A stretch of DNA of 35,334 nt from a virus (lineage: Duplodnaviria; Heunggongvirae; Uroviricota; Caudoviricetes): IMG/VR virus record IMGVR_UViG_2713896776_000008; one strand, given 5' to 3'. The notes beneath the pieces are model-generated. The model was not told the DNA's origin, did not search any database, and was given only the letters and a program-made list of their open reading frames with translations. The position numbers and the translations under genes were made by a program. Shown here piece after piece: positions 3,721 to 35,334 of the stretch; positions within the stretch are counted from its first letter, which is position 1; each line of letters starts with the position of its first letter.

Positions 3721-4887
3721 TTAAACTCCTTTGACGACGTCGGCGTTGACCTGCGGAACCCCGATTTCAGCAGCCAGATTCATGGCGGCTATCACCAGGT
3801 TACTGACGGCCAGCGGATACAGCAGGCTGACCATGCTTTTACGGTTGCTGCCCAGATTGCTCAGACGGGCGCGGATGGCTTCCACTGCGCTGGCGTCCAT
3901 GATGTCAGACAGCTGCTTACCGGCGCGTTGCAGTTTGAACGTCAGAAACTCTTCGAGGCTGTTGTCCAGCGGCAGCAGTTCAACCACCTCGCAGCGCTGG
4001 ACGACCTCACGGACTTCCATGTTGCGTTCGGACAGTTTGTCCGCCAGCTCAGGCTGGCCAATCAGCACGATGGACAGCAGTTTTTTGAAGCCGGATTCCA
4101 GCTCAAAGAAGCGTTTGAGGTGCTTCAGCGTCGGAATGGGCAGACTGTGGGCCTCCTCAATCACCAGAACGTGGCTGAAACCCGCCTGACTGCTGTCCTT
4201 CAGGACGCGGTGCAACTGGCGGAAACGGGCGTCCTGGCTGCGTTTGATACTCTCCAGCGGCGCGATGGTGCTGATGATGGCCTCGGCGATAGCTGCCGCC
4301 TTCAGGGTTTTGCCCTTCACGTCGTTGTCTTCCATGGCGATGATGTATGGCTCGATAACAATCACCGGCGCGTTCTCGCGGTTGACGCGTTCAATCAGGT
4401 CGCGGCGCAGCGTGGATTTACCCGCACCGGACTCGCCGATAACCGCCAGAAAGCCACCGTGGCGGGCGGTCTGGAACAGCGCCTCACGCACGTAGCGGAT
4501 ATCCGGCGTGGTGAACACATCGTCCGCGCCCTGCATGGCTTCATCGGCGAACGGGTCACGGAAAAGACCAAACGCTTTTTTGGTTGCTGGAAATAACACC
4601 TGCTTTTTGAGTAACATGTTCTCTTCCTCACTGAGGTTGGTTTTATCGGTAGTACCCGCTGTACGGGGTGTGACAGCGCCCTGTGCAGCATCAAAACTTT
4701 TCGCTGTATCAATCCCCTTACTTTCCAGATACAACGCCAGACGCTGGCGTACCTCTTCGGGGCTGGTGCGGGGCCACTCGTTATGGTTCACAATCTGGGC
4801 CAGCGTGGCCTCGGAAACGGCGACGGCTCTTGCCACCGCCGCCTGCGGGATGCGGGCCTCTTTCAGTTGTTGCTTCAGTACCAGCAT
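3721..4887 (-). CDS. DNA transposition protein B-like AAA+ ATPase (target DNA activator)
   Basis: Walker A AVIGESGAGKST, N-terminal HTH-like segment, Walker B-like hVLVIEEAH; GGAGG RBS; directly downstream of transposase as in Mu A-B. Confidence 0.85.
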   Translation of the reverse strand: MLVLKQQLKEARIPQAAVARAVAVSEATLAQIVNHNEWPRTSPEEVRQRLALYLESKGIDTAKSFDAAQGAVTPRTAGTTDKTNLSEEENMLLKKQVLFPATKKAFGLFRDPFADEAMQGADDVFTTPDIRYVREALFQTARHGGFLAVIGESGAGKSTLRRDLIERVNRENAPVIVIEPYIIAMEDNDVKGKTLKAAAIAEAIISTIAPLESIKRSQDARFRQLHRVLKDSSQAGFSHVLVIEEAHSLPIPTLKHLKRFFELESGFKKLLSIVLIGQPELADKLSERNMEVREVVQRCEVVELLPLDNSLEEFLTFKLQRAGKQLSDIMDASAVEAIRARLSNLGSNRKSMVSLLYPLAVSNLVIAAMNLAAEIGVPQVNADVVKGV

Positions 4888-4897
4888 GCCTTCCTCC

Positions 4898-6667
4898 TCA
4901 GTTACCGTTAACGATGCTGATAACGCTGTTGCGGGCCGGAGTGGTCAGGGTGACCATGACCTCATCCAGAGCGGCTTCCGGTACGCCGTCCGGGTACTGT
5001 GCCGTTAACTGGCGGTAATGTTCCGGCGTCCAGATATGGCCGTTAGCGCCAAACTTCTCGCGCAGGGCTTTCGCCGCCTCCACATGGGTCAGCGGACGCT
5101 GCTCAATACGCGGCCCGCGCACGTCTGAAGCCTGACCGCGCTTCGGCATATAGGCCGGAAGCGTGGTGTCGTCGATATGTTTGTACGGGTCAAGTCGCCC
5201 GCCGAACGGCAGCGCCTTCGCCTTGCGTGCAGCAGCTGCATCGGTGGCGTTATCGGTGCCCGTAACCAGCTCTTCGATTTCTTTTGCCGCCGTCTGCGCC
5301 GGGGTCTCCGGCAGGGCTTTGTAGTTTTCGCCAAATACCGCCGCGCTTTCGGCAAAGCCGAACTCGTTCTTTCTGACCTCCTCGACCAGGAAGAACGTCT
5401 CGTGACCGTCCTCACCGGTCAGCACCACCTGCGCCACATCGCTGCGCCACGGGTTACGGGTAATCATCAGTTTTTCGCCGACCAGTACGCCCGGTACCGT
5501 CGAAACGTCAAACTCATTGCCCCGGAACGAGACGCGCAGTTTTGGTGTGACCTTACGGAGTTCCGGTGCGGCCACCGCCAGTTCGCGGCAAACCTCAACG
5601 GATGGCGCTTTTTTCAGCTGGTCAGCAGTAATCTTCAGCCAGATATCCGTGCGGGTTTTACCGTGGCGGCTGTGGACCGCCGTGGCGTTAAAGTGGCTGC
5701 GCCATTTCACCGCCAGTGCGTTCAGTTCGTCCAGGCTATGAACCGGCTGGAATTTGAGACCCGGCTCCAGTTTACGTTCGATAATGTCACGGGCCTTTTC
5801 CACCTGCCCGGTGGCGCGGGCGTTATGCGGCTTGTGCGCTATCAGATTGATGCCCAGCGAGCGGCACATGTTTTTCGTCATGCCAGCGGTGTTCGCCGAA
5901 CCGGGATCAAGGTAGAGTATTTTCGGCACGCCGTGCAGCACGTCCGCGCCGCCGCGCTCCTGCATGGCGTTGATAAGCACAGAACAGAGGTTCTCACCAG
6001 ATTCCGCACCCATCACGTACTCAACGTAAATCCAGCCGCTGGTATGGTCGGTAATCTCGTAACTCCACACGCGGTCACTGGCGATGCGGGCGATGTTGGC
6101 AGGCTTGTTCTTGTAGAACTTCGAGCTGTCCATCACCTGCAACCCTTTATGGCCGTTGCTCAGGTAGTAAAGCGTACAAAGTGAGGCATCAATCTCCCAG
6201 ACGTGATTGGGATGCAGGCTGGCCATCTCGGACGACGGGGCCGGTGCGTCAAGCTGTTCCGGGTGCAGACCATAGTTCCGCAGGGCGCGGCTGATGGTGT
6301 CCTCGGACAGCGGGAAAAACTCGCCTGTGGCCTCGTCCGTTCTGCCAGCAGTGATAAAGCCGTTTGACCGCAGGGTCTCCACCGCATCCGCGATGGAATA
6401 CAGGCGTTTACCGTTCTTACGGGTGGCCTCGCGCAGCGTGGCGGAGATCAGCGCGGCCTCGTCGCGGCTCAGGGCGCTGCGCCCGGCATCGGCGCGTTTT
6501 TTGCGTTTGTCAGTCACTGATACCTCCTTCAGCTTGCGCAGCAGGGTGGCGCGGGACATGCCCAGTTCAGCGCAGGCGGCGTCGTATATCGCACCGCGCT
6601 TACCATGCCCCGCGTCACGTGCCGCGCGGGCAACATAAACCAGTCGTTCAGTCAGGGCGGCACTCAT
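4898..6667 (-). CDS. Mu-type DDE transposase (A protein), 589 aa
   Basis: N-terminal HTH (GMSRATLLRKLKEV), central DDE/rve-like core (HVWEIDAS ... YLDPGSANT ...), GGAGG RBS, followed by B. Confidence 0.85.
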   Translation of the reverse strand: MSAALTERLVYVARAARDAGHGKRGAIYDAACAELGMSRATLLRKLKEVSVTDKRKKRADAGRSALSRDEAALISATLREATRKNGKRLYSIADAVETLRSNGFITAGRTDEATGEFFPLSEDTISRALRNYGLHPEQLDAPAPSSEMASLHPNHVWEIDASLCTLYYLSNGHKGLQVMDSSKFYKNKPANIARIASDRVWSYEITDHTSGWIYVEYVMGAESGENLCSVLINAMQERGGADVLHGVPKILYLDPGSANTAGMTKNMCRSLGINLIAHKPHNARATGQVEKARDIIERKLEPGLKFQPVHSLDELNALAVKWRSHFNATAVHSRHGKTRTDIWLKITADQLKKAPSVEVCRELAVAAPELRKVTPKLRVSFRGNEFDVSTVPGVLVGEKLMITRNPWRSDVAQVVLTGEDGHETFFLVEEVRKNEFGFAESAAVFGENYKALPETPAQTAAKEIEELVTGTDNATDAAAARKAKALPFGGRLDPYKHIDDTTLPAYMPKRGQASDVRGPRIEQRPLTHVEAAKALREKFGANGHIWTPEHYRQLTAQYPDGVPEAALDEVMVTLTTPARNSVISIVNGN

Positions 6668-8235: not shown

Positions 8236-8574
8236 ATGATCGGTTTACGTATTAAAGAAGAAAGAGAACGTCTATCCCTTACGCAGCAAGGGTTAGCTGA
8301 CGCTATAGGTGTGGCGAAGAGAACTTTCATAGATTGGGAGAAAGATCGCACCTCCCCAACTGCAGTGCAGTTATCTGCACTATCAGAAATCGGCGTGGAT
8401 GTTTTGTATGTAGTTACTGGGATGAGGAGCCAACCTGTTGTTGCACCTTACGAGTCACAAGAAAAGAAAGAGTTAATGGACGCGTTCGACGACATGAGTC
8501 CCGAGCAGCGGAGGGCTATTCTTGAGGTCGGCAAAGTCCTCACTCAGCCAAAGCCCAGCAAGTTTGCTAGTTGA
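8236..8574 (+). CDS. XRE-family HTH repressor (c-repressor analogue)
   Basis: N-terminal HTH LSLTQQGLADAIGVAKRTFIDWEKDRTSP; divergent from early operon. Confidence 0.75.
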   Translation: MIGLRIKEERERLSLTQQGLADAIGVAKRTFIDWEKDRTSPTAVQLSALSEIGVDVLYVVTGMRSQPVVAPYESQEKKELMDAFDDMSPEQRRAILEVGKVLTQPKPSKFAS

Positions 8575-8697: not shown

Positions 8698-9636
8698 ATG
8701 CGTAAGATGTTTTTGGTCTTAGCTCTGTCATTGCTGGTCGGTTGTGATAGTGGATCAGATGGTGTATCGGATTCTCCTTCTACTCCGTCCGTAGAATTCA
8801 ATGTAAAAACGGACGATTTGACTGTAAACAAGCTGTTGCCTGCTATCAAAAATCTACTGCCAGGGTTAAATCGGTACGCAGATCAGTTCGAAAATATTCA
8901 CGTTGAGCAAAATCATTGGCTCACTATCGTGTTTCATGTTCCCGAAAATGCAAACATACCCGCAGATTATCTCTCTCAGGGGAATAATTGCTTCATCGAG
9001 ATCAATAAAGAAGGTACAGCTATAAAAGTGCCTAAAAGAGCCTGTAAATCCGTTGCCCTAGATAGAGTTGTGCAGGATTTAGATAGCGACTATTGGTTCT
9101 ATTTCAATGCCGACGAATTAACCTATGTGCCGTATGATTTTGCAAAGTTAAACGACAAACAACGTGTAGATATTGGTGTCGCATATCTAAAAAAAATGTG
9201 GGATATCGTGCAGATGGTTAAGCAAAAAACAGACTGGCAACCAGATGATTTTCCTAACTACGCCAGATTGTTCAGGCAACTGGAGAGTGAGGGTAAGCAG
9301 TTTGTAATGGAGGGGGATATGTTCCCAGCTTATGGCTCTTGCAGGATGGCGGGGGCTAACGCTCAGCAATGGTGGTCTACACAAATTAGCTCACTTAAAG
9401 ATTTATCTTCAAATGACCCTCAACGAGCGGGTTCCGCTTTAAAACAAATTAAACGTCAATATGACTCATATCATGAAAGCGCTGTGAGTTGTGCAAAAGA
9501 AATCAGGCAAGCTCCACCAGTAGAGAAAAAAATGGAGGTGTTACCCCCTACGTCAGACAATAAACCTCCAAGAGCGGGCTGTCTGATGATATTTACACCT
9601 GATGACAAGACTAGCTGGAGCTGCCCGATAAACTGA
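8698..9636 (+). CDS. lipoprotein (312 aa), lipobox LLVGC with Asp at +2, AT-rich cargo gene
   Basis: MRKMFLVLALSLLVGC|DSG signal peptide and lipobox; AAGGA RBS; local GC visibly lower than flanking phage genes; several Cys pairs in mature part. Confidence 0.7.
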   Translation: MRKMFLVLALSLLVGCDSGSDGVSDSPSTPSVEFNVKTDDLTVNKLLPAIKNLLPGLNRYADQFENIHVEQNHWLTIVFHVPENANIPADYLSQGNNCFIEINKEGTAIKVPKRACKSVALDRVVQDLDSDYWFYFNADELTYVPYDFAKLNDKQRVDIGVAYLKKMWDIVQMVKQKTDWQPDDFPNYARLFRQLESEGKQFVMEGDMFPAYGSCRMAGANAQQWWSTQISSLKDLSSNDPQRAGSALKQIKRQYDSYHESAVSCAKEIRQAPPVEKKMEVLPPTSDNKPPRAGCLMIFTPDDKTSWSCPIN

Positions 9637-9638
9637 CA

Positions 9639-9896
9639 TTAGCAAGGCTTTCTGCTTTGGGGATTGGCGCTGATGGTCAGTCTTATCTCTCCAATGAGTA
9701 TTCCTTTCAGCTTATTTTCAGGGAGCATTCGTGGCGTTTTCTCCACCTGCTCAAGCGCGGCCTGCATCTCTCTTATTGCCTCTGCCAGATTGTCGGCATT
9801 GACGCTAAGTGTGTAGATTTTTGCTGCAGTTTCATGCTCATCGCAGGTTATTCCCATTAAGTATGAGTGTTTGGGTTTATTAGTTGCTGAACTCAT
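9639..9896 (-). CDS. hypothetical 85-aa protein co-transcribed downstream of dam-like gene
   Basis: ATG at 9896 with AAGGAG upstream, 12 nt after methyltransferase stop; stop lies 2 bp from lipoprotein stop (convergent). Confidence 0.5.
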   Translation of the reverse strand: MSSATNKPKHSYLMGITCDEHETAAKIYTLSVNADNLAEAIREMQAALEQVEKTPRMLPENKLKGILIGEIRLTISANPQSRKPC

Positions 9897-9908
9897 GCGT
9901 TTCTCCTT

Positions 9909-10673
9909 TCAGAAATTGCATATCACAAGTTCCTGGCGCGGTGATGACTTACCCGACAGGCTGTAGTTGATGCAAACGGTCTGGATGTTGAGGCCTTTGA
10001 AAGCCTGCCTCATCTCTGGGATATCGTTCACCGATATAATCATTTTCCCTTTGATACTCCGCGCCAGTTCCGACATGTGGATATAGTTCCCTATTGGAAA
10101 ATCCACCCCATAGCCCTCTGTTCCCCAGTACGGTGGATCACAGTAGAACAGCGTATGCGGGCGATCATAACGCTCTATGCATTGGTGCCAGTCCAGATGC
10201 TCTATCAGCGTTCTGGACAGGCGCAGGTGTGCCATCGACAGTTCTTCTTCGATGCGCAGGAGGTTAAAGCGCGGCGCACTTGTGGTGGAGGTTCCGAACG
10301 AGTGATCGGCCACCTTGCCGCCAAACGCCTGTTTCTGCAGGTAGTAGAACCGGGCCGCCCGCTGAATGTCGGTGAGCGTTTCTTCCGGCGTATCCTGCAA
10401 CCATTTATAAATCTGACGGCTGACCAGCGCCCATTTGAACTGGCGAACAAATTCTTCCAGATGATGCTTGACCACCCGATAGAGGTTCACCAGCTCCCCG
10501 TTGATATCGTTAATGACTTCGGTCTTGCTGGGCGTCTTGAGAAAATAGAGCGCAGCTGCCCCGCAGAACGGCTCCACATAGCAGGTATGGGCCGGAAACA
10601 GCGGCAGAATATGTTTAGCCAGACGACGTTTGCCGCCAATCCATGGGACGATGGGTAAAGATTGTTCTTTCAT
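9909..10673 (-). CDS. Dam-like N6-adenine DNA methyltransferase (D12 class), orphan
   Basis: N-terminal PWIGGKRR...FCGAAALYF (AdoMet motif) and DPPY catalytic motif; ATG at 10673 (ORF track begins at TTG 10697). Confidence 0.8.
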   Translation of the reverse strand: MKEQSLPIVPWIGGKRRLAKHILPLFPAHTCYVEPFCGAAALYFLKTPSKTEVINDINGELVNLYRVVKHHLEEFVRQFKWALVSRQIYKWLQDTPEETLTDIQRAARFYYLQKQAFGGKVADHSFGTSTTSAPRFNLLRIEEELSMAHLRLSRTLIEHLDWHQCIERYDRPHTLFYCDPPYWGTEGYGVDFPIGNYIHMSELARSIKGKMIISVNDIPEMRQAFKGLNIQTVCINYSLSGKSSPRQELVICNF

Positions 10674-10714
10674 TATCCGTAAGCCTTTTGCAATCAATGA
10701 AAATATGGCAGGCT

Positions 10715-10737
10715 AGTCAGGTCTCGCGAGACTGACT
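10715..10737. promoter_or_regulatory. near-perfect palindrome AGTCAGGTCTCG/CGAGACTGACT in dam-holin divergent intergenic region
   Basis: Read directly; lies between divergent methyltransferase and lysis operon starts. Confidence 0.3.
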
Positions 10738-10776
10738 GAACCCTGGTCGGCTCACAGTGCATACCTGTGGGTTGAT

Positions 10777-10808
10777 GACCAGCCTGGTGTTACAGCACCG
10801 GGCTGGTC
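10777..10808. promoter_or_regulatory. inverted repeat GACCAGCCTGGTG-N6-CACCGGGCTGGTC
   Basis: 12/13 arm complementarity, 6-nt spacer, in the same divergent intergenic region. Confidence 0.3.
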
Positions 10809-10861
10809 GTTCTTTCAAAGCCATCATGCGGTTCACGTCCGCATCCTCACTATTAACGCTG

Positions 10862-10899
10862 TTTAAAATCCCTTTCCCCGACCATTTGTGATGCTGTCT
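10862..10899 (+). promoter_or_regulatory. candidate late promoter element (weaker third copy of TTTAAWATC-N20-ATRCTGYCY motif) upstream of lysis operon
   Basis: TTTAAAATCCCTTTCCCCG ... ATGCTGTCT with the same 20-nt spacing as copies at 24459 and 30287. Confidence 0.35.
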
Positions 10900-10921: not shown

Positions 10922-11272
10922 ATGAAAAACCTGAAAAAACTTATTCCCCCTGTTAAAAAGCCACGTCTCAGCGGCTGGCTGCTGACCGCAGTGCTGTTGC
11001 TCGGTACCATCGGTCTTGTATCGCCCCAGCAGCTTCCGGTGGTTGTCTACAAGCTGTCACTCATCACGCTAGCGGCAGTATTGGGCTACTGGCTTGACCG
11101 TTCGCTTTTCCCCAAAGCCAGGCCAGGTCAGTACCTGAAGCATGACGACAGGCTGATGGCCGACGGGCGTTACCCGGTACAGACAGGCCTTCACCTGGTC
11201 TTTTCCGCTGCGCTAATCCGCCGTGCGCTGATTGTTGCCGCAGTCTGTCTGGCCGTAGCGACGGGGCTTTAA
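10922..11272 (+). CDS. putative holin / small lysis membrane protein (about 3 TM)
   Basis: AAGGAG RBS; hydrophobic segments WLLTAVLLLGTIGLV, LSLITLAAVLGYWL, ALIVAAVCLAVATGL; first gene of lysis cassette. Confidence 0.5.
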   Translation: MKNLKKLIPPVKKPRLSGWLLTAVLLLGTIGLVSPQQLPVVVYKLSLITLAAVLGYWLDRSLFPKARPGQYLKHDDRLMADGRYPVQTGLHLVFSAALIRRALIVAAVCLAVATGL

Positions 11273-25031: not shown

Positions 25032-27509
25032 GTGGCCAGTGAATTTTCAGTCGGCGTCATTATTGGCGGCATTGTCGGGAGCAGCTTCCGTTCTGCCGTC
25101 AGCGGTACCCGACGCGCCCTTGATTCCCTGGGCGATACATCGCGCCGCCTGCAGGAACGCCAGAACGCCTTAACCCGTGCAACTGAACGTTATGGGCAGT
25201 TAGGCTCTTCCCGAATGCAGCGCCTCAACAGCGAGCTGCTGCGGGTAAGCCGCACAATGGAGCAAATTGAGCGCCAGCAGCGCCGTCTGTCAGCAGTATC
25301 AGCCACCAGTGACGCGCTGAAAGCTAACCGCATGGCGTTGTATGGTCAGGGCGTTGAGGCGTATGCCATGGCACAGACCGTTTATCATACGGTCTCCCCG
25401 GCAGTTCAGCAGTCTATGTCTTTTAAAGACAAAATGATTGATATGTCGATCACCGCCAAATATGACGATAAAACGCGGGATGCTCTTGCCGAACAAATAA
25501 AAGGCTGGGCACTTAAATACAATCAGTATCAGGATGATATGCAGGACGCTGTGGGTTCACTCATCAGTGACAACATCGATAATGTATCTGATATTGGGTA
25601 TTTAATGCCGGACATTGCCCGCGCGGCAACCGCAACACGCACATCGGGACAGGACTGGGCCAAAGTAGCTGCGGTCTGGCAAAACTCACTGAAAGGTGCT
25701 GCCAAAGATTTTGGTGCCGTCCAGAATATTATGGCTTATGCCGGTGACCAGGGGTCATTTGAAATCCCGGATCAGGTCAAATGGATGCAGTCTCTGGCCC
25801 CCATGATGGCGGGAGTTGCCAGCGGGAAAGAGGCTGTAGCTGAAATCGGTGCCAGCCTCCAGATAGCGAAAATTGGTGCGGGTTCCACCGATGAAGCTGC
25901 CAATAACTTTAAAAACTTTCTCACCAAAATTTTTGCCCGCGATACTCAGAAACAATTTGCCGATTTGGGTGTTGACCTGCAGGGTTCAATCGAAAGTTAC
26001 AAGGCTGCTGGCATCTCTCCGATTGAAGGCATGATGAGCGTCATAGAGCGCTACCTCAATGCTAAAAGCCCTGAAGCTCTGGCCGGGTTCAAATCCGCCA
26101 TGAAAATAAAGAACGATACGGCGAGGGATGAGGCTCTTCAGGCGCTGGCAAAAAATTTCGGCCTGGGCGAGATGTTCGCTGATATGCAGGTCATGGCGTT
26201 TGTCCGTCCGATGCTGTCCAACATGGACAGGTACCGTGAAATACGTGCCGGTGCTCTCAAAGCAGCGGATAACGATCTTCTTGGAAACTCTTACGACCAG
26301 CGCCTGAAATCCCCTCTTGAAGCGACCAAAGCTCTGGTGGTCAACAGTCGCGATCTGGCTATTACGCTGGGCGATCAATTAGCTCCATCTTTTATTTCTC
26401 TGGCGCAGGAGCTTCTCCCTCTGATTCAGGGGGCAAAACAATGGGTCGCGGCTCATCCACAACTTGTCAGTGGTACTTTTAAAGTTATTACCGCGCTCAT
26501 TGCTTTTAAAATTGCGGTTATTGGTCTCAAGCTGGGGATAAACCTTCTTATTTCCCCATTTGTCAACGTCTGGAAAAGTATCGTACTGCTGCAATCCAGT
26601 TGGCTTCGGCTGACGCTTGCACTCGGTGAAGGCGGTAAACTCCGCTGGCTGGTGACCGGCTTCAGCGCCGTCGCCAGAGGTGCCAGAACTTTGGGAGGAG
26701 TGCTGTCAGGTGGGCTGGTTCGCGGCATTATGATCGCCGGGCGTGCCGTTCTCTGGATTGGCCGGGCACTGCTAATGAATCCCATTGGTCTTGCCATCAC
26801 CGCCGTCGCGGCGGCAGCTTACCTTATTTACCGCAACTGGGGCGCAGTCAGTAGCTGGTTTAAACAGCGTTGGGCTGACATTAAAGAGGCGTTTAACGGC
26901 GGTGTCGTGGGGATTGGTAAGCTGCTGATTAACTGGTCGCCGGTTGGTCTGCTCTATAAAGCCTTTGCGGCTGCGCTGAAATATCTCGGCGTTGATCTGC
27001 CGGCGAAGTTCACCGACTTCGGTGGTCATCTTATCGACGGCCTGATTAACGGCATCAAAAACAAATGGGAGTCGCTCAAAACCACCGTCACAGACATGGG
27101 CGACAGCGTTGGCGGCTGGTTTAAAGAAAAGCTGGGTATCCATTCGCCAAGCCGGGTATTCATGGGCTTTGGTGACAACATCGCGCAGGGTGCCGCTATC
27201 GGCCTGCAGCGTACCACACCACTGGCAGCGCTCGCCGGACAACGCCTGGCAACAGAGATGACTCCCGATGTTCCCCGTATCCCGTCGCCGGAAATCATGG
27301 CAGCGGGATATTCAGGTCGTGGCGCAGTTGCAACTGGCGGCGGAACATCTGGCGGTATCCAGGTCAGCTTTAATCCTCAGTTTTTCCTCAATGGCAAAGA
27401 AACCGCAGCGCCTGCCGGACTGACCGGCGCACTGAATATGAGCCTGCATGAACTGGAGAAAATGCTGGAGCGTCTGCTGGCTCAGAAACAACGTCGGGGG
27501 TACGAATAA
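25032..27509 (+). CDS. tail tape measure protein
   Basis: 825 aa, long predicted helical N-terminal region and hydrophobic glycine-rich central segments; GTG start after AGAGGA. Confidence 0.8.
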   Translation: MASEFSVGVIIGGIVGSSFRSAVSGTRRALDSLGDTSRRLQERQNALTRATERYGQLGSSRMQRLNSELLRVSRTMEQIERQQRRLSAVSATSDALKANRMALYGQGVEAYAMAQTVYHTVSPAVQQSMSFKDKMIDMSITAKYDDKTRDALAEQIKGWALKYNQYQDDMQDAVGSLISDNIDNVSDIGYLMPDIARAATATRTSGQDWAKVAAVWQNSLKGAAKDFGAVQNIMAYAGDQGSFEIPDQVKWMQSLAPMMAGVASGKEAVAEIGASLQIAKIGAGSTDEAANNFKNFLTKIFARDTQKQFADLGVDLQGSIESYKAAGISPIEGMMSVIERYLNAKSPEALAGFKSAMKIKNDTARDEALQALAKNFGLGEMFADMQVMAFVRPMLSNMDRYREIRAGALKAADNDLLGNSYDQRLKSPLEATKALVVNSRDLAITLGDQLAPSFISLAQELLPLIQGAKQWVAAHPQLVSGTFKVITALIAFKIAVIGLKLGINLLISPFVNVWKSIVLLQSSWLRLTLALGEGGKLRWLVTGFSAVARGARTLGGVLSGGLVRGIMIAGRAVLWIGRALLMNPIGLAITAVAAAAYLIYRNWGAVSSWFKQRWADIKEAFNGGVVGIGKLLINWSPVGLLYKAFAAALKYLGVDLPAKFTDFGGHLIDGLINGIKNKWESLKTTVTDMGDSVGGWFKEKLGIHSPSRVFMGFGDNIAQGAAIGLQRTTPLAALAGQRLATEMTPDVPRIPSPEIMAAGYSGRGAVATGGGTSGGIQVSFNPQFFLNGKETAAPAGLTGALNMSLHELEKMLERLLAQKQRRGYE

Positions 27510-28393
27510 TGTTTGCGGTACTGGGTGATATTGAGTTTGAACTGATTACCTACTGGGACGGCTTTGAGGCCACTTTCGGTGTCGATTATGCGGAACATGC
27601 CCGCATAGAGGGTAAGCCCGGCCTGCAGTTCGTCGGCGACAAGCTGGACGAAATCCAGATAAGCCTGGTCTTCCATCAGCATTATTGTGTGCCCGACGTG
27701 GAGCTGGCGAGACTGAGAACGGCCATGAAAGCCCATCAGGCGCTGGCACTGGTTTTCGGCAACGGTGACTATCGCGGCTGGTTTGTGATTACCGACGTGA
27801 CCGCGACCAGCGAGCAGACCGACAGCACAGGCAACGTGCTGGCCGTCAATGCCACCGCATCTCTCCGGGAGTACATCGGCGACCCGAAGAACCCGCTACA
27901 GCCTCCTGCGATACGCACGCAGGTTCCCGGCGTCGGGGCGGTCTCCGGTGCCGTACCTTCTCCCTCCGGGGTGGCGCAGTACGTTCGCGACGGCGTCAAC
28001 TATGCCAAACAGGCGCAGTCTGTTCTCCAGACCACCATCAGCGCCGTTCGGGTGGCGCAGAAAATGAAGGATAACCCCGCCGTCGCGCTGACCCGCGTGC
28101 CGGGGCTGATGAGCGGACTGGGCAACGTGTCCGGGGCGTTAGGCCAGAGCGTTCCGGCATTCAATGCGCTCTCTGAATCCATGCCTGATGCCATCAGTCT
28201 GGCCAGAGCCACCAGCGATGCGGCCACGTATGTACAACAGGCACAGTCTTCGCTGAGCGGCGTGGACGGCAGCAATATCGCGGCAGCGCTGGATGCCGTT
28301 TCCGGGCAGCTTAACTCCGCCAGCACCACCTTCACTCGTATGTCGCCGGGGTTAAGCACCATGGCAGCTAAAATTCTGGCGAGGAGTGTGTGA
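27509..28393 (+). CDS. tail protein (Mu N / DNA-circularisation N-terminal-domain-like)
   Basis: 294 aa; position right after tape measure; Ala/Ser-rich C-terminal half. Confidence 0.5.
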   Translation: MFAVLGDIEFELITYWDGFEATFGVDYAEHARIEGKPGLQFVGDKLDEIQISLVFHQHYCVPDVELARLRTAMKAHQALALVFGNGDYRGWFVITDVTATSEQTDSTGNVLAVNATASLREYIGDPKNPLQPPAIRTQVPGVGAVSGAVPSPSGVAQYVRDGVNYAKQAQSVLQTTISAVRVAQKMKDNPAVALTRVPGLMSGLGNVSGALGQSVPAFNALSESMPDAISLARATSDAATYVQQAQSSLSGVDGSNIAAALDAVSGQLNSASTTFTRMSPGLSTMAAKILARSV

Positions 28394-28605
28394 TGTTTCT
28401 TGAACATGTTACCCGTGACGGAGAGCGCTGGGACTCTCTGGCATGGCAGTACTACGGCGACCCACTGGGCTATCCCCGGATAATTGCCGCCAATCCGCAC
28501 GTGGCCATTACGCCGGTGCTGCCCTCCGGGCTGTTGTTACTGATCCCGGTTATCGAGGCTGAAGAAGCCACCACAGAAGAGGATATTGCCCCATGGCTGA
28601 GATAA
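28393..28605 (+). CDS. tail protein X-like (LysM-like small tail protein)
   Basis: 70 aa, GAGGAG RBS; ERWDSLAWQYYGD motif resembles P2 gpX family. Confidence 0.55.
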   Translation: MFLEHVTRDGERWDSLAWQYYGDPLGYPRIIAANPHVAITPVLPSGLLLLIPVIEAEEATTEEDIAPWLR

Positions 28606-29762
28606 ACAGCACTGCACAGGTCGCATCAGCGTTAACCGGCGTCAGCGATGTTCTGAGTCCGGTGTTCACGCTGTGGTATCTGCAGAAGAACATCACCACC
28701 GATATCGCCCCCTATGTCACCCGCGTAACCTACAGCGATAACATCAAAAGCGAGTCCGATACCATTGAGGTGGAGCTGGACGACACCGATGGCCGCTGGC
28801 TGGATAAGTGGTATCCGGGCAAGGGTGACACGCTGACGCTGAAAATGGGTTATCAGGGCGAGAAGCTGCTGTCCTGTGGTACGTTCTCGATAGACGAGAT
28901 CGAGGTGAGTTCGCCCGCGTCCGTTGTCGCTATCCGGGGCGTGGCCACGTCGGTCAACAACGCCCTGCGGACAAAATCCAGTCGTGGTTTCGAGAGCACC
29001 ACGCTGGCGGCTATAGCCGGACGGATTGCCAAAAAGCATCAGCTGAAGCTGGTTGGCAGTATTGAGTCCATCAAAATTGACCGGGTGACCCAGTATGCTG
29101 AAACGGACGTGGGCTTCCTGCGTCGACTGGCCAGCGAGTATGGTTATGCCGTGAAAGTGGTCAGCGACCAGCTGATTTTCTCTCATCTGGCCACGCTGCG
29201 CGATCAGGAGCCGGTAAAACAGTTGAAGCCACAGGATGTGGCCAGCTTTTCCCTGCGTGACACCATCAACCGCGTCTACAAATCCGCAAAGGTAAAACAC
29301 CAGAAGAGCAGCGATAAAAAGCTGATCGTCTACGAAGCTGATGGCGGTACCAGCGAAAGCGACAAACAAACCAAAGGCGGTAAGGTCACCAGTGCCGACT
29401 CACTGAAGGTCAACAGCCGCGTCAGTGATCCGGACAGCGCCCGGATTAAAGCAGATTCGGCGCTGGCCAGGCATAACGAATACCAGCAGAACGGCTCGCT
29501 GTCGCTGATGGGGACGCCTCAGTTGACTGCAGGCAACAAAATTGAACTGGTGGGTTTTGGTCAGTTATCCGGGCCATGGCTGATAACTACTGCCCGCCAT
29601 GCGTTTGACCGTAACAGCGGCTACATCACCGAACTGGAAGTGGCACGAGGGCCGGTTACGCAGGGCAAAGCGAAGAAAGGTAAAAAGACCGGAAAAACCC
29701 AGACGCTGACCGTCTATAAACCGGACGGCAGCACGTCCACGGTAATAAAGGAGAAAAAATAA
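28593..29762 (+). CDS. baseplate hub / late control D-like protein (P2 gpD, Mu P-like)
   Basis: 389 aa; position and family resemblance. Confidence 0.7.
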   Translation: MAEINSTAQVASALTGVSDVLSPVFTLWYLQKNITTDIAPYVTRVTYSDNIKSESDTIEVELDDTDGRWLDKWYPGKGDTLTLKMGYQGEKLLSCGTFSIDEIEVSSPASVVAIRGVATSVNNALRTKSSRGFESTTLAAIAGRIAKKHQLKLVGSIESIKIDRVTQYAETDVGFLRRLASEYGYAVKVVSDQLIFSHLATLRDQEPVKQLKPQDVASFSLRDTINRVYKSAKVKHQKSSDKKLIVYEADGGTSESDKQTKGGKVTSADSLKVNSRVSDPDSARIKADSALARHNEYQQNGSLSLMGTPQLTAGNKIELVGFGQLSGPWLITTARHAFDRNSGYITELEVARGPVTQGKAKKGKKTGKTQTLTVYKPDGSTSTVIKEKK

Positions 29763-32343: not shown

Positions 32344-33327
32344 ATGGCAAACCTACCTGAAACCCCGCAGTGGGAAGAAGGCATCTACCAGATTGAGGTC
32401 TCTGACCCCGTTCTGGGTGGGCCTGACGGAATCTCTAACCGTCAGGGTAAACAACTGGCCAGCCGCACGCTGTACCTGAAGCAACAGGTTGAAAAAGGCG
32501 GTTCTGAACTTGCGAAACACATCGCGGCAGCAGACCCGCATACCCAGTACGCACCGAAAGCCAGCCCGACATTCACCGGCACGCCAACAGCGCCTACGCC
32601 TGCAAATAGTGATAACAGCAAGAAGCTGGCGACGACAGAGTTTGTGGCCAAAGCACTTGCGGCGCTTGCTGGCAGCGCTCCTGAGACGCTGGATACGCTC
32701 AAAGAGCTGGCTGATGCCCTCGGCAACGATCCGAATTTTGCGACCACGGTGTTGAACAAGCTGGCGGAAAAGCTGGCCAAAGACCAGCACGGCGCAGATA
32801 TTCCTGACCCGGCGCTCTTTGTCAAAAACCTTGGTTTGGGAGAAGGTTCGGCATTACCCGTTGGGGTGCCTGTTCCGTGGCCTTCAGCCACACCACCAAC
32901 AGGCTGGCTGAAATGCAACGGTGCACCTTTTTCTGCCGAAGAGTACCCAAAACTGGCAAAGGCTTACCCAAAGTTAAAATTACCGGATTTGCGCGGTGAG
33001 TTTATTCGCGGGTGGGATGATGGGCGAGGTGTTGATTCCGCGAGACTGCTACTTTCAAGTCAGGCAGCATCTATCCTTGAACATAACCATGAAATGCAGG
33101 GATGGACCGGCAACCCACTCATGGCTAGTGATGTTTATTCATCCATGTCATCCGTATTTGCGGTGCAGTTGAGCATTGGCGATGGCGGGTTATTGTATTC
33201 GTGGAAGGATGGGAGTGGAACAACAAATGACAGTAAACGAATGAATAGAACAAATCATGTCAGTTCCGGCGCCGGTGATGGTAGCCCGCGAAACATTGCA
33301 TTTAACTACATTGTGAGGGCTGCATAA
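32344..33327 (+). CDS. tail fibre protein (constant N-terminal part fused to variable C-terminal part in current orientation; tail-collar domain)
   Basis: N-terminal conserved fibre region; gix-like site encodes KNLGLGE at 32819-32844; C-terminal GWLKCNGAPFSAEEYPKLAKAYPKLKLPDLRGEFIRGWD tail-collar motif. Confidence 0.8.
   Translation: MANLPETPQWEEGIYQIEVSDPVLGGPDGISNRQGKQLASRTLYLKQQVEKGGSELAKHIAAADPHTQYAPKASPTFTGTPTAPTPANSDNSKKLATTEFVAKALAALAGSAPETLDTLKELADALGNDPNFATTVLNKLAEKLAKDQHGADIPDPALFVKNLGLGEGSALPVGVPVPWPSATPPTGWLKCNGAPFSAEEYPKLAKAYPKLKLPDLRGEFIRGWDDGRGVDSARLLLSSQAASILEHNHEMQGWTGNPLMASDVYSSMSSVFAVQLSIGDGGLLYSWKDGSGTTNDSKRMNRTNHVSSGAGDGSPRNIAFNYIVRAA
32819..32844. repeat. gix/hix-like recombination site (left), TTGTCAAAAACCTTGGTTTGGGAGAA
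   Basis: 26-bp site with AAACC..GGTTT core; inverted copy at 34666-34691 (24/26 identical). Confidence 0.65.
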
Positions 33328-33930
33328 ATGGAACAGGCTATTTTGGGAAAAGACGGTTACGCTTTAAATGATGGGGAAATCATCGTACATAACTATGATG
33401 GCGAAACGCGGGAATATATTTCTACATCAACTGAATATCTCGCTGTCGGCGTCGGTATCCCGGCATGTTCCTGTCTGGATGCACCAGGTACACATAAAGC
33501 TGGTTATGCAATCTGTCGCTCTGTAGATTTAAATTCATGGGAATATGTGCCAGACCATCGCGGTGAAGTTGTCTATAGTACCGAAACGGGAGATACCAAA
33601 GAAATCACAGTTCCGGGTGATTACCCTGAAAATACAACCACTATCGCCCCATTAACGCCATACGATAAATGGGATGGTGAGAAATGGGTGACGGATACCG
33701 AGGCACAGCATAGCGCCGCACTAGACGCGGCAGAAGCACAGCGCCAGTCACTGATTAATGCAGCAATGGCTTCCATTAGTCTGATTCAGCTGAAATTACA
33801 GGCCGGACGGAAGTTGACGCAGGCAGAAACAACCCGACTTAACGCCGTGCTGGATTACATTGACGCGGTGACGGCAACAGATACCAGCACCGCGCCGGAT
33901 GTCATCTGGCCTGAACTGCCGGAGGAGTAG
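33328..33930 (+). CDS. tail fibre assembly chaperone (U-like)
   Basis: C-terminal LDYIDAVTATDTSTAPDVIWPELP motif typical of Tfa proteins; AT-rich. Confidence 0.75.
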   Translation: MEQAILGKDGYALNDGEIIVHNYDGETREYISTSTEYLAVGVGIPACSCLDAPGTHKAGYAICRSVDLNSWEYVPDHRGEVVYSTETGDTKEITVPGDYPENTTTIAPLTPYDKWDGEKWVTDTEAQHSAALDAAEAQRQSLINAAMASISLIQLKLQAGRKLTQAETTRLNAVLDYIDAVTATDTSTAPDVIWPELPEE

Positions 33931-34342
33931 GCCATTCAATATCTGGTGCACTGGAAGTATCGACCAGCTCCAGTGCGTCCAGATAATCCAGCCACAAATT
34001 ATATTGCGCCAGTTCCTCACCTTTCAGACGACCAATAGCCGCTTTACCAGCCCATTGTCTACTGTTCATATAATCGTTGGCCTGATTAATCAATTGCTGC
34101 TTTTTAGTTTCGGCTGATGCAATTTGTTCTTCACGTGTTGGCGGTGGAACATCTGCCCATGCTGGCATTCCATCGTCTCCGGTAATTCTGTACTTACCGT
34201 CAGGCGGCGTATCATGGAAATATTCCCTGAAAATAGCTTCGTCTATATCCACGCCTTTACCTTCGGGCCATTGGCCTTTTGCAGCGTAAACAGACTGGAG
34301 GGCATAAGGGTACGCCAGATTATCAACATACAAATATTTCAT
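33902..34342 (-). CDS. alternative tail fibre assembly chaperone (U'-like)
   Basis: C-terminal LDYLDALELVDTSSAPDIEWPTPP motif; convergent with U, 3' ends overlap 29 bp. Confidence 0.7.
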   Translation of the reverse strand: MKYLYVDNLAYPYALQSVYAAKGQWPEGKGVDIDEAIFREYFHDTPPDGKYRITGDDGMPAWADVPPPTREEQIASAETKKQQLINQANDYMNSRQWAGKAAIGRLKGEELAQYNLWLDYLDALELVDTSSAPDIEWPTPPAVQAR

Positions 34343-34344
34343 AA

Positions 34345-34704
34345 TTAACGCCCTTTCGCGTAGAAGGCTCCACCTTCAAAGCCATAGTTACAATGAGCAA
34401 CGAAACCTGTTTTCGTCCAGTTAGTTGCGCCCCACATATTCCCACCACCAAAACCGCCGTCATATACAATCACTACGTCTGGCTCCTGCGTAAAAGGAAT
34501 GGTGAAAGTCACATTTGTAGATACCGCCGCGGCGTTATTCGGGAAATTAATTCTTCCCCACTGCTCAATTGAACCATCAGGCAATTTTTGCCAGCCAGAT
34601 CCTGATGAATAAGCTGACATATCAGGTATCTGATTTTCCCCTGTTCCCACATTCCGTTTTGCCGCTTCTCCCAAACCAAGGTTTTTGGAAAAGCAGTTAC
34701 ACAT
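34345..34704 (-). CDS. alternative tail-fibre C-terminal segment (S'v), promoterless cassette joined to the constant part after inversion
   Basis: ORF contains the same gix-encoded KNLGLGE heptapeptide near its 5' end; Gly-rich distal domain differs from the current Sv. Confidence 0.65.
   Translation of the reverse strand: MCNCFSKNLGLGEAAKRNVGTGENQIPDMSAYSSGSGWQKLPDGSIEQWGRINFPNNAAAVSTNVTFTIPFTQEPDVVIVYDGGFGGGNMWGATNWTKTGFVAHCNYGFEGGAFYAKGR
34666..34691. repeat. gix/hix-like recombination site (right), inverted copy
   Basis: TTCTCCCAAACCAAGGTTTTTGGAAA; reverse complement matches the left site at 24/26 positions. Confidence 0.65.
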
Positions 34705-34752
34705 AGAGAAATCTGCAAAAATCCTCCCACTATGATGTGAAGGAGGAAATTG

Positions 34753-35334
34753 ATGGCCGTTATTGGTTATATCCGCGTATCAACAATCGACCAGAACAGC
34801 GATTTGCAGCGTAATGCACTCACAAGCGCAAACTGTGACCGCATTTTTGAAGACCGTATGAGTGGAAAAGTTGCCAGTCGCCCTGGTCTTAAAGGCGCTT
34901 TAAAGTGCATTAATAGCGGAGACACCCTGGTAGTGTGGAAACTGGACAGGCTGGGACGTAGCGTTAAGAACCTGATTGCACTCATATCAGAGTTACATGA
35001 ACGTGGTGCCCACTTCCGCTCTTTAACAGACAGTATTGATACCAGCACTGCCATGGGGCGCTTCTTTTTCCATGTAATGTCGGCATTGGCGGAGATGGAG
35101 CGCGAGCTAATTGTCGAACGGACACTGGCCGGGCTGGCAGCAGCCAGAGCACAGGGACGCGTAGGTGGAAGGCCCAACGCATTAAAAACCCATGAGCGAG
35201 AGCAGATTGGGCGGCTATTGACGAAGGGGCACACCCGCCAGCAGCTGGCAATTATCTACGGTGTAGGGTTATCGACGCTTTACCGATACTTTCCGGTGGA
35301 TGGTCATAGGAAGGATAACGCAGCAGGAATGTAA
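34753..35334 (+). CDS. gin: Gin/Hin/Pin-family serine DNA invertase
   Basis: N-terminal resolvase catalytic region GYIRVSTIDQNSDLQRNAL with active-site Ser, DRLGRS motif, C-terminal HTH; AGGAGG RBS; adjacent to invertible segment. Confidence 0.9.
   Translation: MAVIGYIRVSTIDQNSDLQRNALTSANCDRIFEDRMSGKVASRPGLKGALKCINSGDTLVVWKLDRLGRSVKNLIALISELHERGAHFRSLTDSIDTSTAMGRFFFHVMSALAEMERELIVERTLAGLAAARAQGRVGGRPNALKTHEREQIGRLLTKGHTRQQLAIIYGVGLSTLYRYFPVDGHRKDNAAGM

Follow-up and report, generated by a model that had tools for sequence, protein, structure and literature searches.

An orphan D12-class adenine methyltransferase and a solo small gene joined in the variable slot of a BcepMu-like prophage

The window analysed here (the 35,334 nucleotides (nt) of IMG/VR virus record IMGVR_UViG_2713896776_000008, Caudoviricetes) is by its gene content an almost complete BcepMu-like transposable prophage, and it carries on its minus strand a gene for a DNA adenine methyltransferase (the methylase) that is followed at once by a gene for a protein of 85 amino acids (aa). 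The sequence-only reading of this region had taken the two genes for an operon at an unusual central position, and possibly for an uncharacterised two-gene system. The explanation that we favour, with a probability of about 0.5, is that an orphan methylase typical of its phage family and a solo small protein that is kept by selection were joined by recombination, and that the small protein neutralises enzymes of the DUF2441 type. The evidence for this lies in the fixed position of the methylase among relatives, in the linkage of the small gene to DUF2441 rather than to the methylase, and in the way the small gene came to stand where it does; the coordinates of all features are given in Table 1.

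The methylase matches PF02086 over profile positions 1–245 of 253 with an E-value of 8.5e-28 (98.2 bits against a cut-off of 22), and matches phrog_56 at 7.7e-98 and the PADLOC profile MTase_II PDLC03253 at 1.2e-114; its PDB matches include DpnM (2.4e-16) and E. coli Dam (4.8e-15). Motif I reads EPFCGAA at residues 34–40, with an A in place of the third G of the FxGxG-like motif, and it lies N-terminal to motif IV with the target-recognition region between the two, which is the order of the alpha group. Judged by its profile match, by motif IV and by the order of the motifs, the protein is assigned to the D12-class (alpha-group) N6-adenine DNA methyltransferases, in agreement with what had been read from its DPPY tetrapeptide. 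An alternative in-frame TTG upstream, at 10697, is possible as a start, and the relatives in RefSeq are annotated at 765 nt. No nuclease domain was found beside the methylase when its neighbours (the 85-aa protein, the lipoprotein, the helix-turn-helix (HTH) gene and the holin) were scanned against Pfam, PADLOC and NCBIfam; the sole nuclease-like match, that of the lipoprotein to PADLOC REase_II (E 0.012, 13.5 bits), is non-significant. The earlier statement that no restriction endonuclease adjoins the gene is thus borne out, and the methylase does not have the cognate endonuclease at its side that defines a type II restriction-modification system.

Orthologues of the methylase (87–99% identity) lie in the same place and on the same strand in Klebsiella phage KP12, in Escherichia phage PhiKM and in E. 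coli AF22, GON1437, CFSAN051542 and ABU 83972, and the same position recurs in a further ∼35 loci from genomes and IMG/VR. The slot follows the repressor and the gene after it and precedes the holin, with the methylase antisense to both; of 5426 complete E. coli genomes, 529 (∼10%) have a copy with a DNA identity of at least 80%. The sequence-only reading was right to place the gene between the immunity and lysis modules, as the HTH repressor-like gene on one side and the holin on the other attest, and mistaken in calling the place unusual: KP12, PhiKM, ABU 83972 and all other BcepMu-like relatives examined have the methylase at this spot, so that its position is the norm in the enterobacterial members of the group. 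As the DNA around the fixed methylase varies among relatives, the slot has the character of an accessory-gene hot spot. A search of the phage collection gave 63–67% identity to B3 ORF48 (Pseudomonas), to phiE125 gp27, phi1026b gp26 and KS9 gp25 (Burkholderia), and to proteins of VP882 (Vibrio), phiHAP-1 (Halomonas) and MuM16-1 (Shewanella), which places the methylase in the B3 ORF48/phiE125 gp27/VP882 clade. It appears, on these identities, as a new member of a known and widespread phage clade that is biochemically uncharacterised.

The 85-aa gene follows the methylase closely, as had been noted from the sequence. Between the methylase TGA (9909–9911) and its ATG (9894–9896) there are 12 nt, six of which form a Shine-Dalgarno sequence, AAGGAG, that abuts the TGA. 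The protein has 28 homologues of 62–95% identity, from Citrobacter, Enterobacter, Yersinia, Morganella, Proteus, Symbiopectobacterium and other genera, and a HMMER profile search over 1.84 billion representatives added a second subfamily of ∼30% identity and 77–109 aa, found in E. coli, KP12, Arsenophonus and Pseudomonas; beyond that subfamily the same search returned coiled-coil noise only. Pairwise ratios of non-synonymous to synonymous substitution rates (dN/dS) of the small gene are 0.20–0.45, with synonymous divergence (dS) up to 1.1. Where the gene occurs without DUF2441, dN/dS is 0.24–0.45 with dS up to 0.4, and the frame is intact in all 14 loci. It is intact even where an internal stop has made a pseudogene of the methylase, namely in E. 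coli AF22 (L003, 4227–4991) and Intestinirhabdus alba (L017, 1613–2312), the copy beside both pseudogenes being a 91-aa variant. These ratios and the spread of homologues argue that the open reading frame (ORF) is a real, conserved gene under purifying selection, and the sequence-only reading, which had made the case for it depend on conservation in related elements, is upheld on this point.

The small family has no sequence match in Pfam, PHROG, NCBIfam, PADLOC or PDB, and no HTH, ribbon-helix-helix or AbrB domain was detected in the 85-aa protein. The structure prediction that had been suggested gave a beta-beta-alpha-beta model of low confidence (AlphaFold2 with alignments of 22 and 31 sequences; mean predicted local distance difference test (pLDDT) 52–53), and a Foldseek comparison of this model with PDB returned nothing with E<1. 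A HicB-like fold, guessed from the sequence pattern, was dropped after a PDB profile search and Pfam scans of 31 members gave noise only. A known defence role was likewise set aside, there being no PADLOC match for the small protein or for DUF2441. The gene is easily overlooked in annotation: second-subfamily copies are unannotated in the GenBank record of KP12 (L001, 5447–5830, minus strand) and in the RefSeq/PGAP annotation of E. coli CFSAN051542 (L051, gap at 5527–5901). An 83-aa protein from Enterobacter cloacae (P0016) is a natural chimera, with 23 N-terminal residues of the KP12 type and the rest of the window type, which suggests that the two subfamilies have recombined inside the small gene.

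The constant partner of the small gene is DUF2441 (PF10386), not the methylase. DUF2441 is a member of the ADP-ribosyltransferase clan of Pfam (PMC7955679), and it matches a structural-genomics entry, PDB 2aua, and phrog_5663, of unknown function. In a tblastn census over loci fetched via the small protein, gene orders, given in the orientation of the small gene, fell into the three arrangements A, B and C of Table 1. In every census locus outside arrangement A, DUF2441 stands tail-to-tail with the small gene, 5–33 nt apart or overlapping it, and the reciprocal search from DUF2441 found the small gene convergent and 10–33 nt downstream in 17 of 17 IMG/VR loci. A DUF2441 gene on the opposite strand separates the small gene from the methylase in 22 of the 36 BcepMu-like loci. 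The loci of arrangement C, which have no methylase, are Pseudomonas lambdoid prophages, Arsenophonus Mu-like prophages and one BcepMu-like contig; in two of the 17 loci (L057 and L058) the cassette of small gene and DUF2441 is present and the methylase is reduced to a 23-aa remnant. Conversely, the methylase occurs without either cassette gene in PhiKM and in the E. coli type that is common (ABU 83972, ∼500 genomes). In the longer forms of the second subfamily (107–127 aa) the small gene overlaps the 3′ end of the convergent DUF2441 by ∼80 nt. Each partner is also found broken on its own: in Pantoea stewartii (L020, 5001–5171 and 7843–7935) an insertion of 2.7 kb interrupts the small gene beside an intact DUF2441 ORF, and in Erwinia tracheiphila (L021, 5221–5355 and 6536–7000) it is DUF2441 that is split, beside an intact small gene.

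The 85-aa protein of the window is a clear member of the family carried by this undescribed cassette, with 62–95% identity to the cassette-borne copies (E 1e-45 to 1e-23, and a profile E of 1e-5 to the second subfamily); the window differs in that no DUF2441 was found in it by tblastn, the convergent neighbour of the small gene being the 312-aa lipoprotein, and in that the small gene follows the methylase stop instead of standing beside the holin. How this came about can be read from alignments with relatives. The spacer between methylase and holin in the window aligns end to end with that of arrangement-B relatives except for their insertion of ∼940 bp, which holds DUF2441 and the small gene and behaves as a clean indel flanked by a direct repeat of ∼110 nt of the holin leader. 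By blastn, the small gene and exactly its 20-nt leader (9897–9916) match the cassette copy, the match ending at about 9908–9916. Since no more than the gene and this leader match the cassette, the small gene was relocated or separately acquired without its own upstream region, and, as it now stands directly after the methylase stop with that region lost, it can be transcribed only together with the methylase. Recombination in the variable slot of this BcepMu-like prophage would thereby have brought two unrelated genes into a single transcription unit. The operon described by the sequence-only reading stands in so far as co-transcription is the only option in the window; the two genes are not a dedicated pair, as DUF2441 lies between them in most BcepMu-like loci.

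Table 1. Features of the window and of related loci; positions are those of the window, and loci are listed for the three gene arrangements.
Feature	Position or loci	Strand	Basis or remark
Orphan alpha-group (D12) N6-adenine DNA methyltransferase, 254 aa	9909–10673	−	ATG start, PF02086
Catalytic motif IV, DPPY, residues 179–182	10128–10139	−	Sequence; invariant in methylase alignment
S-adenosylmethionine (SAM)-binding motif I, F-C-G-A-A (FxGxG-like; PFCGAA)	10554–10568	−	Aligns with EPFVGAG of E. coli Dam
85-aa protein of unnamed family, solo copy of the small partner of the small-protein/DUF2441 cassette	9639–9896	−	Homologues, dN/dS, context census
20-nt leader with AAGGAG Shine-Dalgarno (9903–9908), overlapping the methylase stop codon	9897–9916	−	Sequence and blastn
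Conserved region upstream of methylase, with imperfect palindrome AGTCAGGTCTCGCGAGACTGACT at 10715–10737	10674–10773	−	Near-identical in all relatives
Intrinsic-terminator-like hairpin (10774–10811) and GUUCUUUC	10774–10816	+	−32.4 kcal/mol, z −5.7
Conserved box CTATTAACGCTGTTTAAAAT, ∼50 nt upstream of holin ATG, candidate late promoter	10850–10869	+	Alignment
HTH_3 repressor-like gene, immunity module, left boundary of variable slot	8236–8574	+	PF01381 1.6e-7 and repressor PHROGs
312-aa lipoprotein, lipobox LVGC	8698–9636	+	phrog_10002; convergent with 85-aa gene, 2-nt gap
Holin, first gene of lysis/late operon, right boundary of slot	10922–11272	+	PF13272 5.4e-41
DDE transposase	4898–6667	−	Early gene
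MuB-like AAA ATPase	3721–4887	−	Early gene
Arrangement A: holin (reverse), methylase, small gene, convergent gene; no DUF2441	14 loci: window, L003, L015, L017, L019, L025–29, L032–35		
Arrangement B: holin (reverse), small gene, convergent DUF2441, methylase	∼22 loci: KP12 (L001), L004–07, L014, L016, L018, L020–23, L030–31, L036–37, L039, L042–45		
Arrangement C: small gene and convergent DUF2441, no methylase	12 loci: L008–13, L038, L040–41, L046–48		

The timing of DUF2441 expression is suggested by its leader. In relatives that carry the cassette, DUF2441 and the holin are both preceded by a hairpin, then by GTTCTTTC, and then by the box CTATTAACGCnGTTTAAAA ∼50 nt before the ATG, and this unit of ∼110 nt, hairpin plus box, is duplicated in L016 (2374–2447 and 1310–1426) and likewise in L005. 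Because it carries a copy of the lysis-operon leader, DUF2441 is probably a late gene. We propose that DUF2441 is made late in lytic growth and that the convergent small gene protects the cell when DUF2441 should be off, the small protein binding or neutralising DUF2441-type enzymes; the solo 85-aa copy would then serve the lysogen as an orphan antidote or as an immunity protein, giving it protection when related phages bring in their DUF2441. Whether the whole of this applies, that is, whether the small protein and DUF2441 constitute an undescribed two-gene module of an ADP-ribosyltransferase-like enzyme driven by a late leader and a convergent inhibitor, with the window copy acting from the methylase transcript as a cross-immunity antidote, is more doubtful, and we put this fuller version forward tentatively. 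The solo copy resembles orphan antitoxin and immunity genes in being a small protein on a mobile element that stays constrained after the loss of an enzyme-like partner; it differs from them in that the two genes of the usual pair converge and do not form an operon, in that a DNA-binding domain is absent, and in that neutralisation is in this case a supposition. Several points weigh against the proposed antidote role. DUF2441 is not known to be toxic or to be an active ADP-ribosyltransferase. The convergent order of the small gene and DUF2441 is atypical for toxin-antitoxin pairs, and the model of the small protein has no recognisable fold. The order of methylase and then small gene recurs in 14 loci and several genera, which makes selection for their co-expression possible. 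Finally, the disrupted small gene of P. stewartii next to an intact DUF2441 means that DUF2441 is not constitutively lethal, and shows the small protein to be dispensable, at least in a silent prophage, despite the presence of DUF2441.

The P. stewartii locus would fit a reading in which the 85-aa protein is an autonomous accessory, for example in superinfection exclusion or anti-defence, that acts without DUF2441, the latter being merely a frequent neighbour in the cassette. Such a role would also suit a small gene that is under purifying selection in the absence of DUF2441 and that is always found in prophage variable regions beside immunity genes. Yet all 17 of the DUF2441 loci have the small gene at 10–33 nt, and the pair is kept in three unrelated backbones (BcepMu-like, lambdoid Pseudomonas and Arsenophonus Mu-like), which argues for functional coupling rather than hitch-hiking; we regard an autonomous role as possible, at odds well short of even. 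A true functional pair of methylase and 85-aa protein, the latter as a regulator, as a modulator of specificity or activity, or as part of a new modification-dependent system, is improbable by a wide measure. The 12-nt spacing, which leaves no space for a promoter and has the Shine-Dalgarno sequence directly against the stop codon, would speak for it, as would the retention of the arrangement in its 14 loci (Mixta, E. coli, Intestinirhabdus, Symbiopectobacterium and IMG/VR contigs, at 72–96% protein identity) and the presence of a methylase within 2 kb in nearly all BcepMu-like loci with the small gene. However, where DUF2441 intervenes on the opposite strand the small gene has a leader of its own; the small gene does without any methylase in 12 loci, outlives it in the two loci with a 23-aa remnant and stays intact next to methylase pseudogenes, the methylase does without the small gene in PhiKM and ∼500 E. 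coli prophages, and the small protein is not a Com-like zinc finger. The uncharacterised two-gene system that the sequence-only reading had considered therefore finds no support in the linkage data, given the small gene with DUF2441 in Pseudomonas and Arsenophonus and the many E. coli prophages with the methylase only. Scarcely credible is the idea that the 85-aa ORF has no function and is what remains of a cassette now lost: its usual partner and its own upstream region are indeed gone, but the frame, the strong Shine-Dalgarno sequence and the low dN/dS (0.24–0.45) have been kept in the solo loci. The reading we prefer, of a family-typical methylase joined to a selected solo small protein, accordingly removes a false lead, the methylase being neither oddly placed nor half of a new modification system. 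The methylase itself is ordinary, and the cassette with its orphan small-gene copy is a modest but genuine lead: often unannotated, the cassette passes from one prophage backbone to another that is unrelated, uses a leader borrowed from the lysis operon, and offers a tractable candidate for a new phage enzyme-inhibitor pair.

With respect to specificity, the methylase shares with E. coli Dam, T4 Dam and DpnM the fold class and the order of elements (GGK and FxGxG-like motifs on the N-terminal side, the target-recognition region in the centre and DPPY on the C-terminal side), and its identity to E. coli Dam is ∼26%. It scores 112.7 against the cut-off of 114.85 for TIGR00571, just below, and 68.9 against 441 for the NCBIfam Dam equivalog NF008152. 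The residues of E. coli Dam that contact GATC we take, from the Dam-DNA structure, to be K9, N120, L122, R124, P134, R137 and Y138. In alignments by HMMER and MAFFT, which agree and which at this low identity are indicative only, K9 is replaced by P, N120 by G, L122 by K and R124 by A, and only R137 and Y138 have plausible equivalents in the window, R135 and F136. On both counts the methylase does not look like an E. coli Dam orthologue, and as it misses the Dam cut-offs and lacks most of the presumed GATC contacts, GATC specificity is not to be assumed. GATC occurs 66 times in the window, against 135 expected from a mononucleotide model or 162 from a Markov model (ratio 0.41–0.49), and is thus depleted although the phage carries a Dam-type gene of its own; CTAG is the only other 4-mer palindrome as depleted.

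We infer that the orphan methylase modifies adenines in the phage DNA, and possibly in that of the host, and that this methylation would evade restriction enzymes that are sensitive to methylated adenines, a role like that of Mom or of the B3 Com-Dam pair in Mu-like phages. By analogy with these, anti-restriction would be the most probable benefit. A mainly epigenetic-regulatory or DNA-maintenance role, perhaps with GATC specificity, so that full methylation would guard against MutH or set the timing of phage promoters, seems unlikely. Homology to Dam and DpnM and a location next to the immunity and late-promoter region are compatible with it, as is the strong depletion of GATC, a classical mark of the conflict of enterobacterial phages with Dam/MutH (cited in PMC8541194), and a Salmonella lysogen of a BcepMu-type phage showed no N6-methyladenine motif beyond known ones (PMC3868858), the presence of the methylase gene in that prophage being unchecked. 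The unconserved GATC-reading residues and the scores below the Dam models stand against such a role; moreover, the control region between methylase and holin contains no GATC site, and the persisting depletion itself argues that GATC is not reliably protected. Whatever its target, the methylase is a core orphan gene at a fixed position in roughly a tenth of complete E. coli genomes, and its specificity, once learned, would annotate hundreds of genomes.

The closest described counterpart is the ORF47-ORF48 pair of phage B3, to whose ORF48 the window methylase is 64% identical over the full length; both are methylases of transposable Mu-like phages without a nuclease partner. In B3 a Com-like protein and a Dam-type enzyme replace the com-mom of Mu, and the activity of ORF48 was undemonstrated as of 2011 (PMC3299994). 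The window differs from B3 in three respects. The Com zinc-finger gene ORF47 lies upstream of ORF48 and overlaps it, whereas no Com-like gene is placed in this way in the window, its minus-strand ORFs upstream of 10673 (22 and 39 aa) not having been checked for the Cys4 pattern. The B3 pair lies among tail genes and the window methylase between repressor and holin, and the window has an unrelated small gene downstream of the methylase. That small protein has two Cys in the window copy, of which only C18 is conserved at 90% or more, and so lacks a Com-like Cys4 zinc finger; in its sequence features the window does not correspond to a Com-Mom or Com-Dam module. Hia5, Hin1523 and Nma1821 are, like the window methylase, orphan Dam-related enzymes of Mu-like prophages; they stand in for Mom and block many restriction enzymes, and B3 ORF48 is absent from the 1000 closest relatives of Hia5, whose type forms a separate subfamily (PMC3299994). 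The non-specific activity of the Hia5 type is for this reason not transferable to the window methylase. No published specificity was found for the B3/phiE125/VP882 clade, the VP882 and AH14 papers being uninformative on it. One published expression result may bear on the clade: the phi1026b gene with locus tag bp27, which carries the annotation 'putative DNA adenine methylase', was transcribed in a lysogen (PMC2920897), its identity with the gp26 homologue being unconfirmed. M.EcoMIV of E. coli EC958, which has low transcription and no assigned motif (PMC4659465), was considered and left unused: a tie to the methylase family was not established, and the EC958 region that was fetched held no prophage.

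No sigma-70 consensus was found in the 100 nt upstream of the methylase, and the predicted RNA fold there is no better than in shuffled sequences. The hairpin before the holin shows compensatory changes across 30 variants, stem position 12 being T-A, C-G or A-T, and it has G.U pairs that can form in plus-strand RNA only. The U-rich tail gives it the look of an intrinsic terminator, and it may insulate the lysis genes. As no terminator was found after the lipoprotein gene, plus-strand transcripts of the repressor and lipoprotein genes could run antisense over the small gene and the methylase and end at this hairpin, short of the lysis genes. The lipoprotein gene is low in GC (0.40–0.45); the N-terminal ∼125 aa and the last ∼30 aa of its product match the product of a 145–190-aa gene that follows the repressor in relatives, and it is thus an enlarged variant of that gene with an insertion of ∼150 aa. 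A copy of the region of lipoprotein, small gene and methylase with 97.6% identity occurs at 26844–28994 of NZ_CP132021.1, a 40,540-bp record from E. coli JCH8249 that is typed as a plasmid and may be the phage genome assembled as a separate replicon.

The remainder of the window conforms to its assignment. Besides the transposase and the MuB-like ATPase, the early minus-strand genes include GemA, DUF3164, DUF3102, a gene with an IclR-type HTH and a Ner-like gene, and the repressor is divergent from them; the plus strand carries the lysis genes (holin, SLT transglycosylase and an Rz-like gene), the small and large terminase subunits of Mu type, the portal and the tail genes. Close relatives are KP12, PhiKM (classified in Bcepmuvirus) and many prophages. 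At the right end (32344–35334), a tail-fibre gene (Collar domain) and a gene for tail-fibre assembly come first, and after them, in inverted orientation, a second assembly gene and a fibre-tip gene; the inverted pair lies on the minus strand at 33902–34342 and 34345–34704, and the next ORF runs off the end of the window. In its layout this end is similar to the invertible G segment that acts in phage Mu as a host-range switch.

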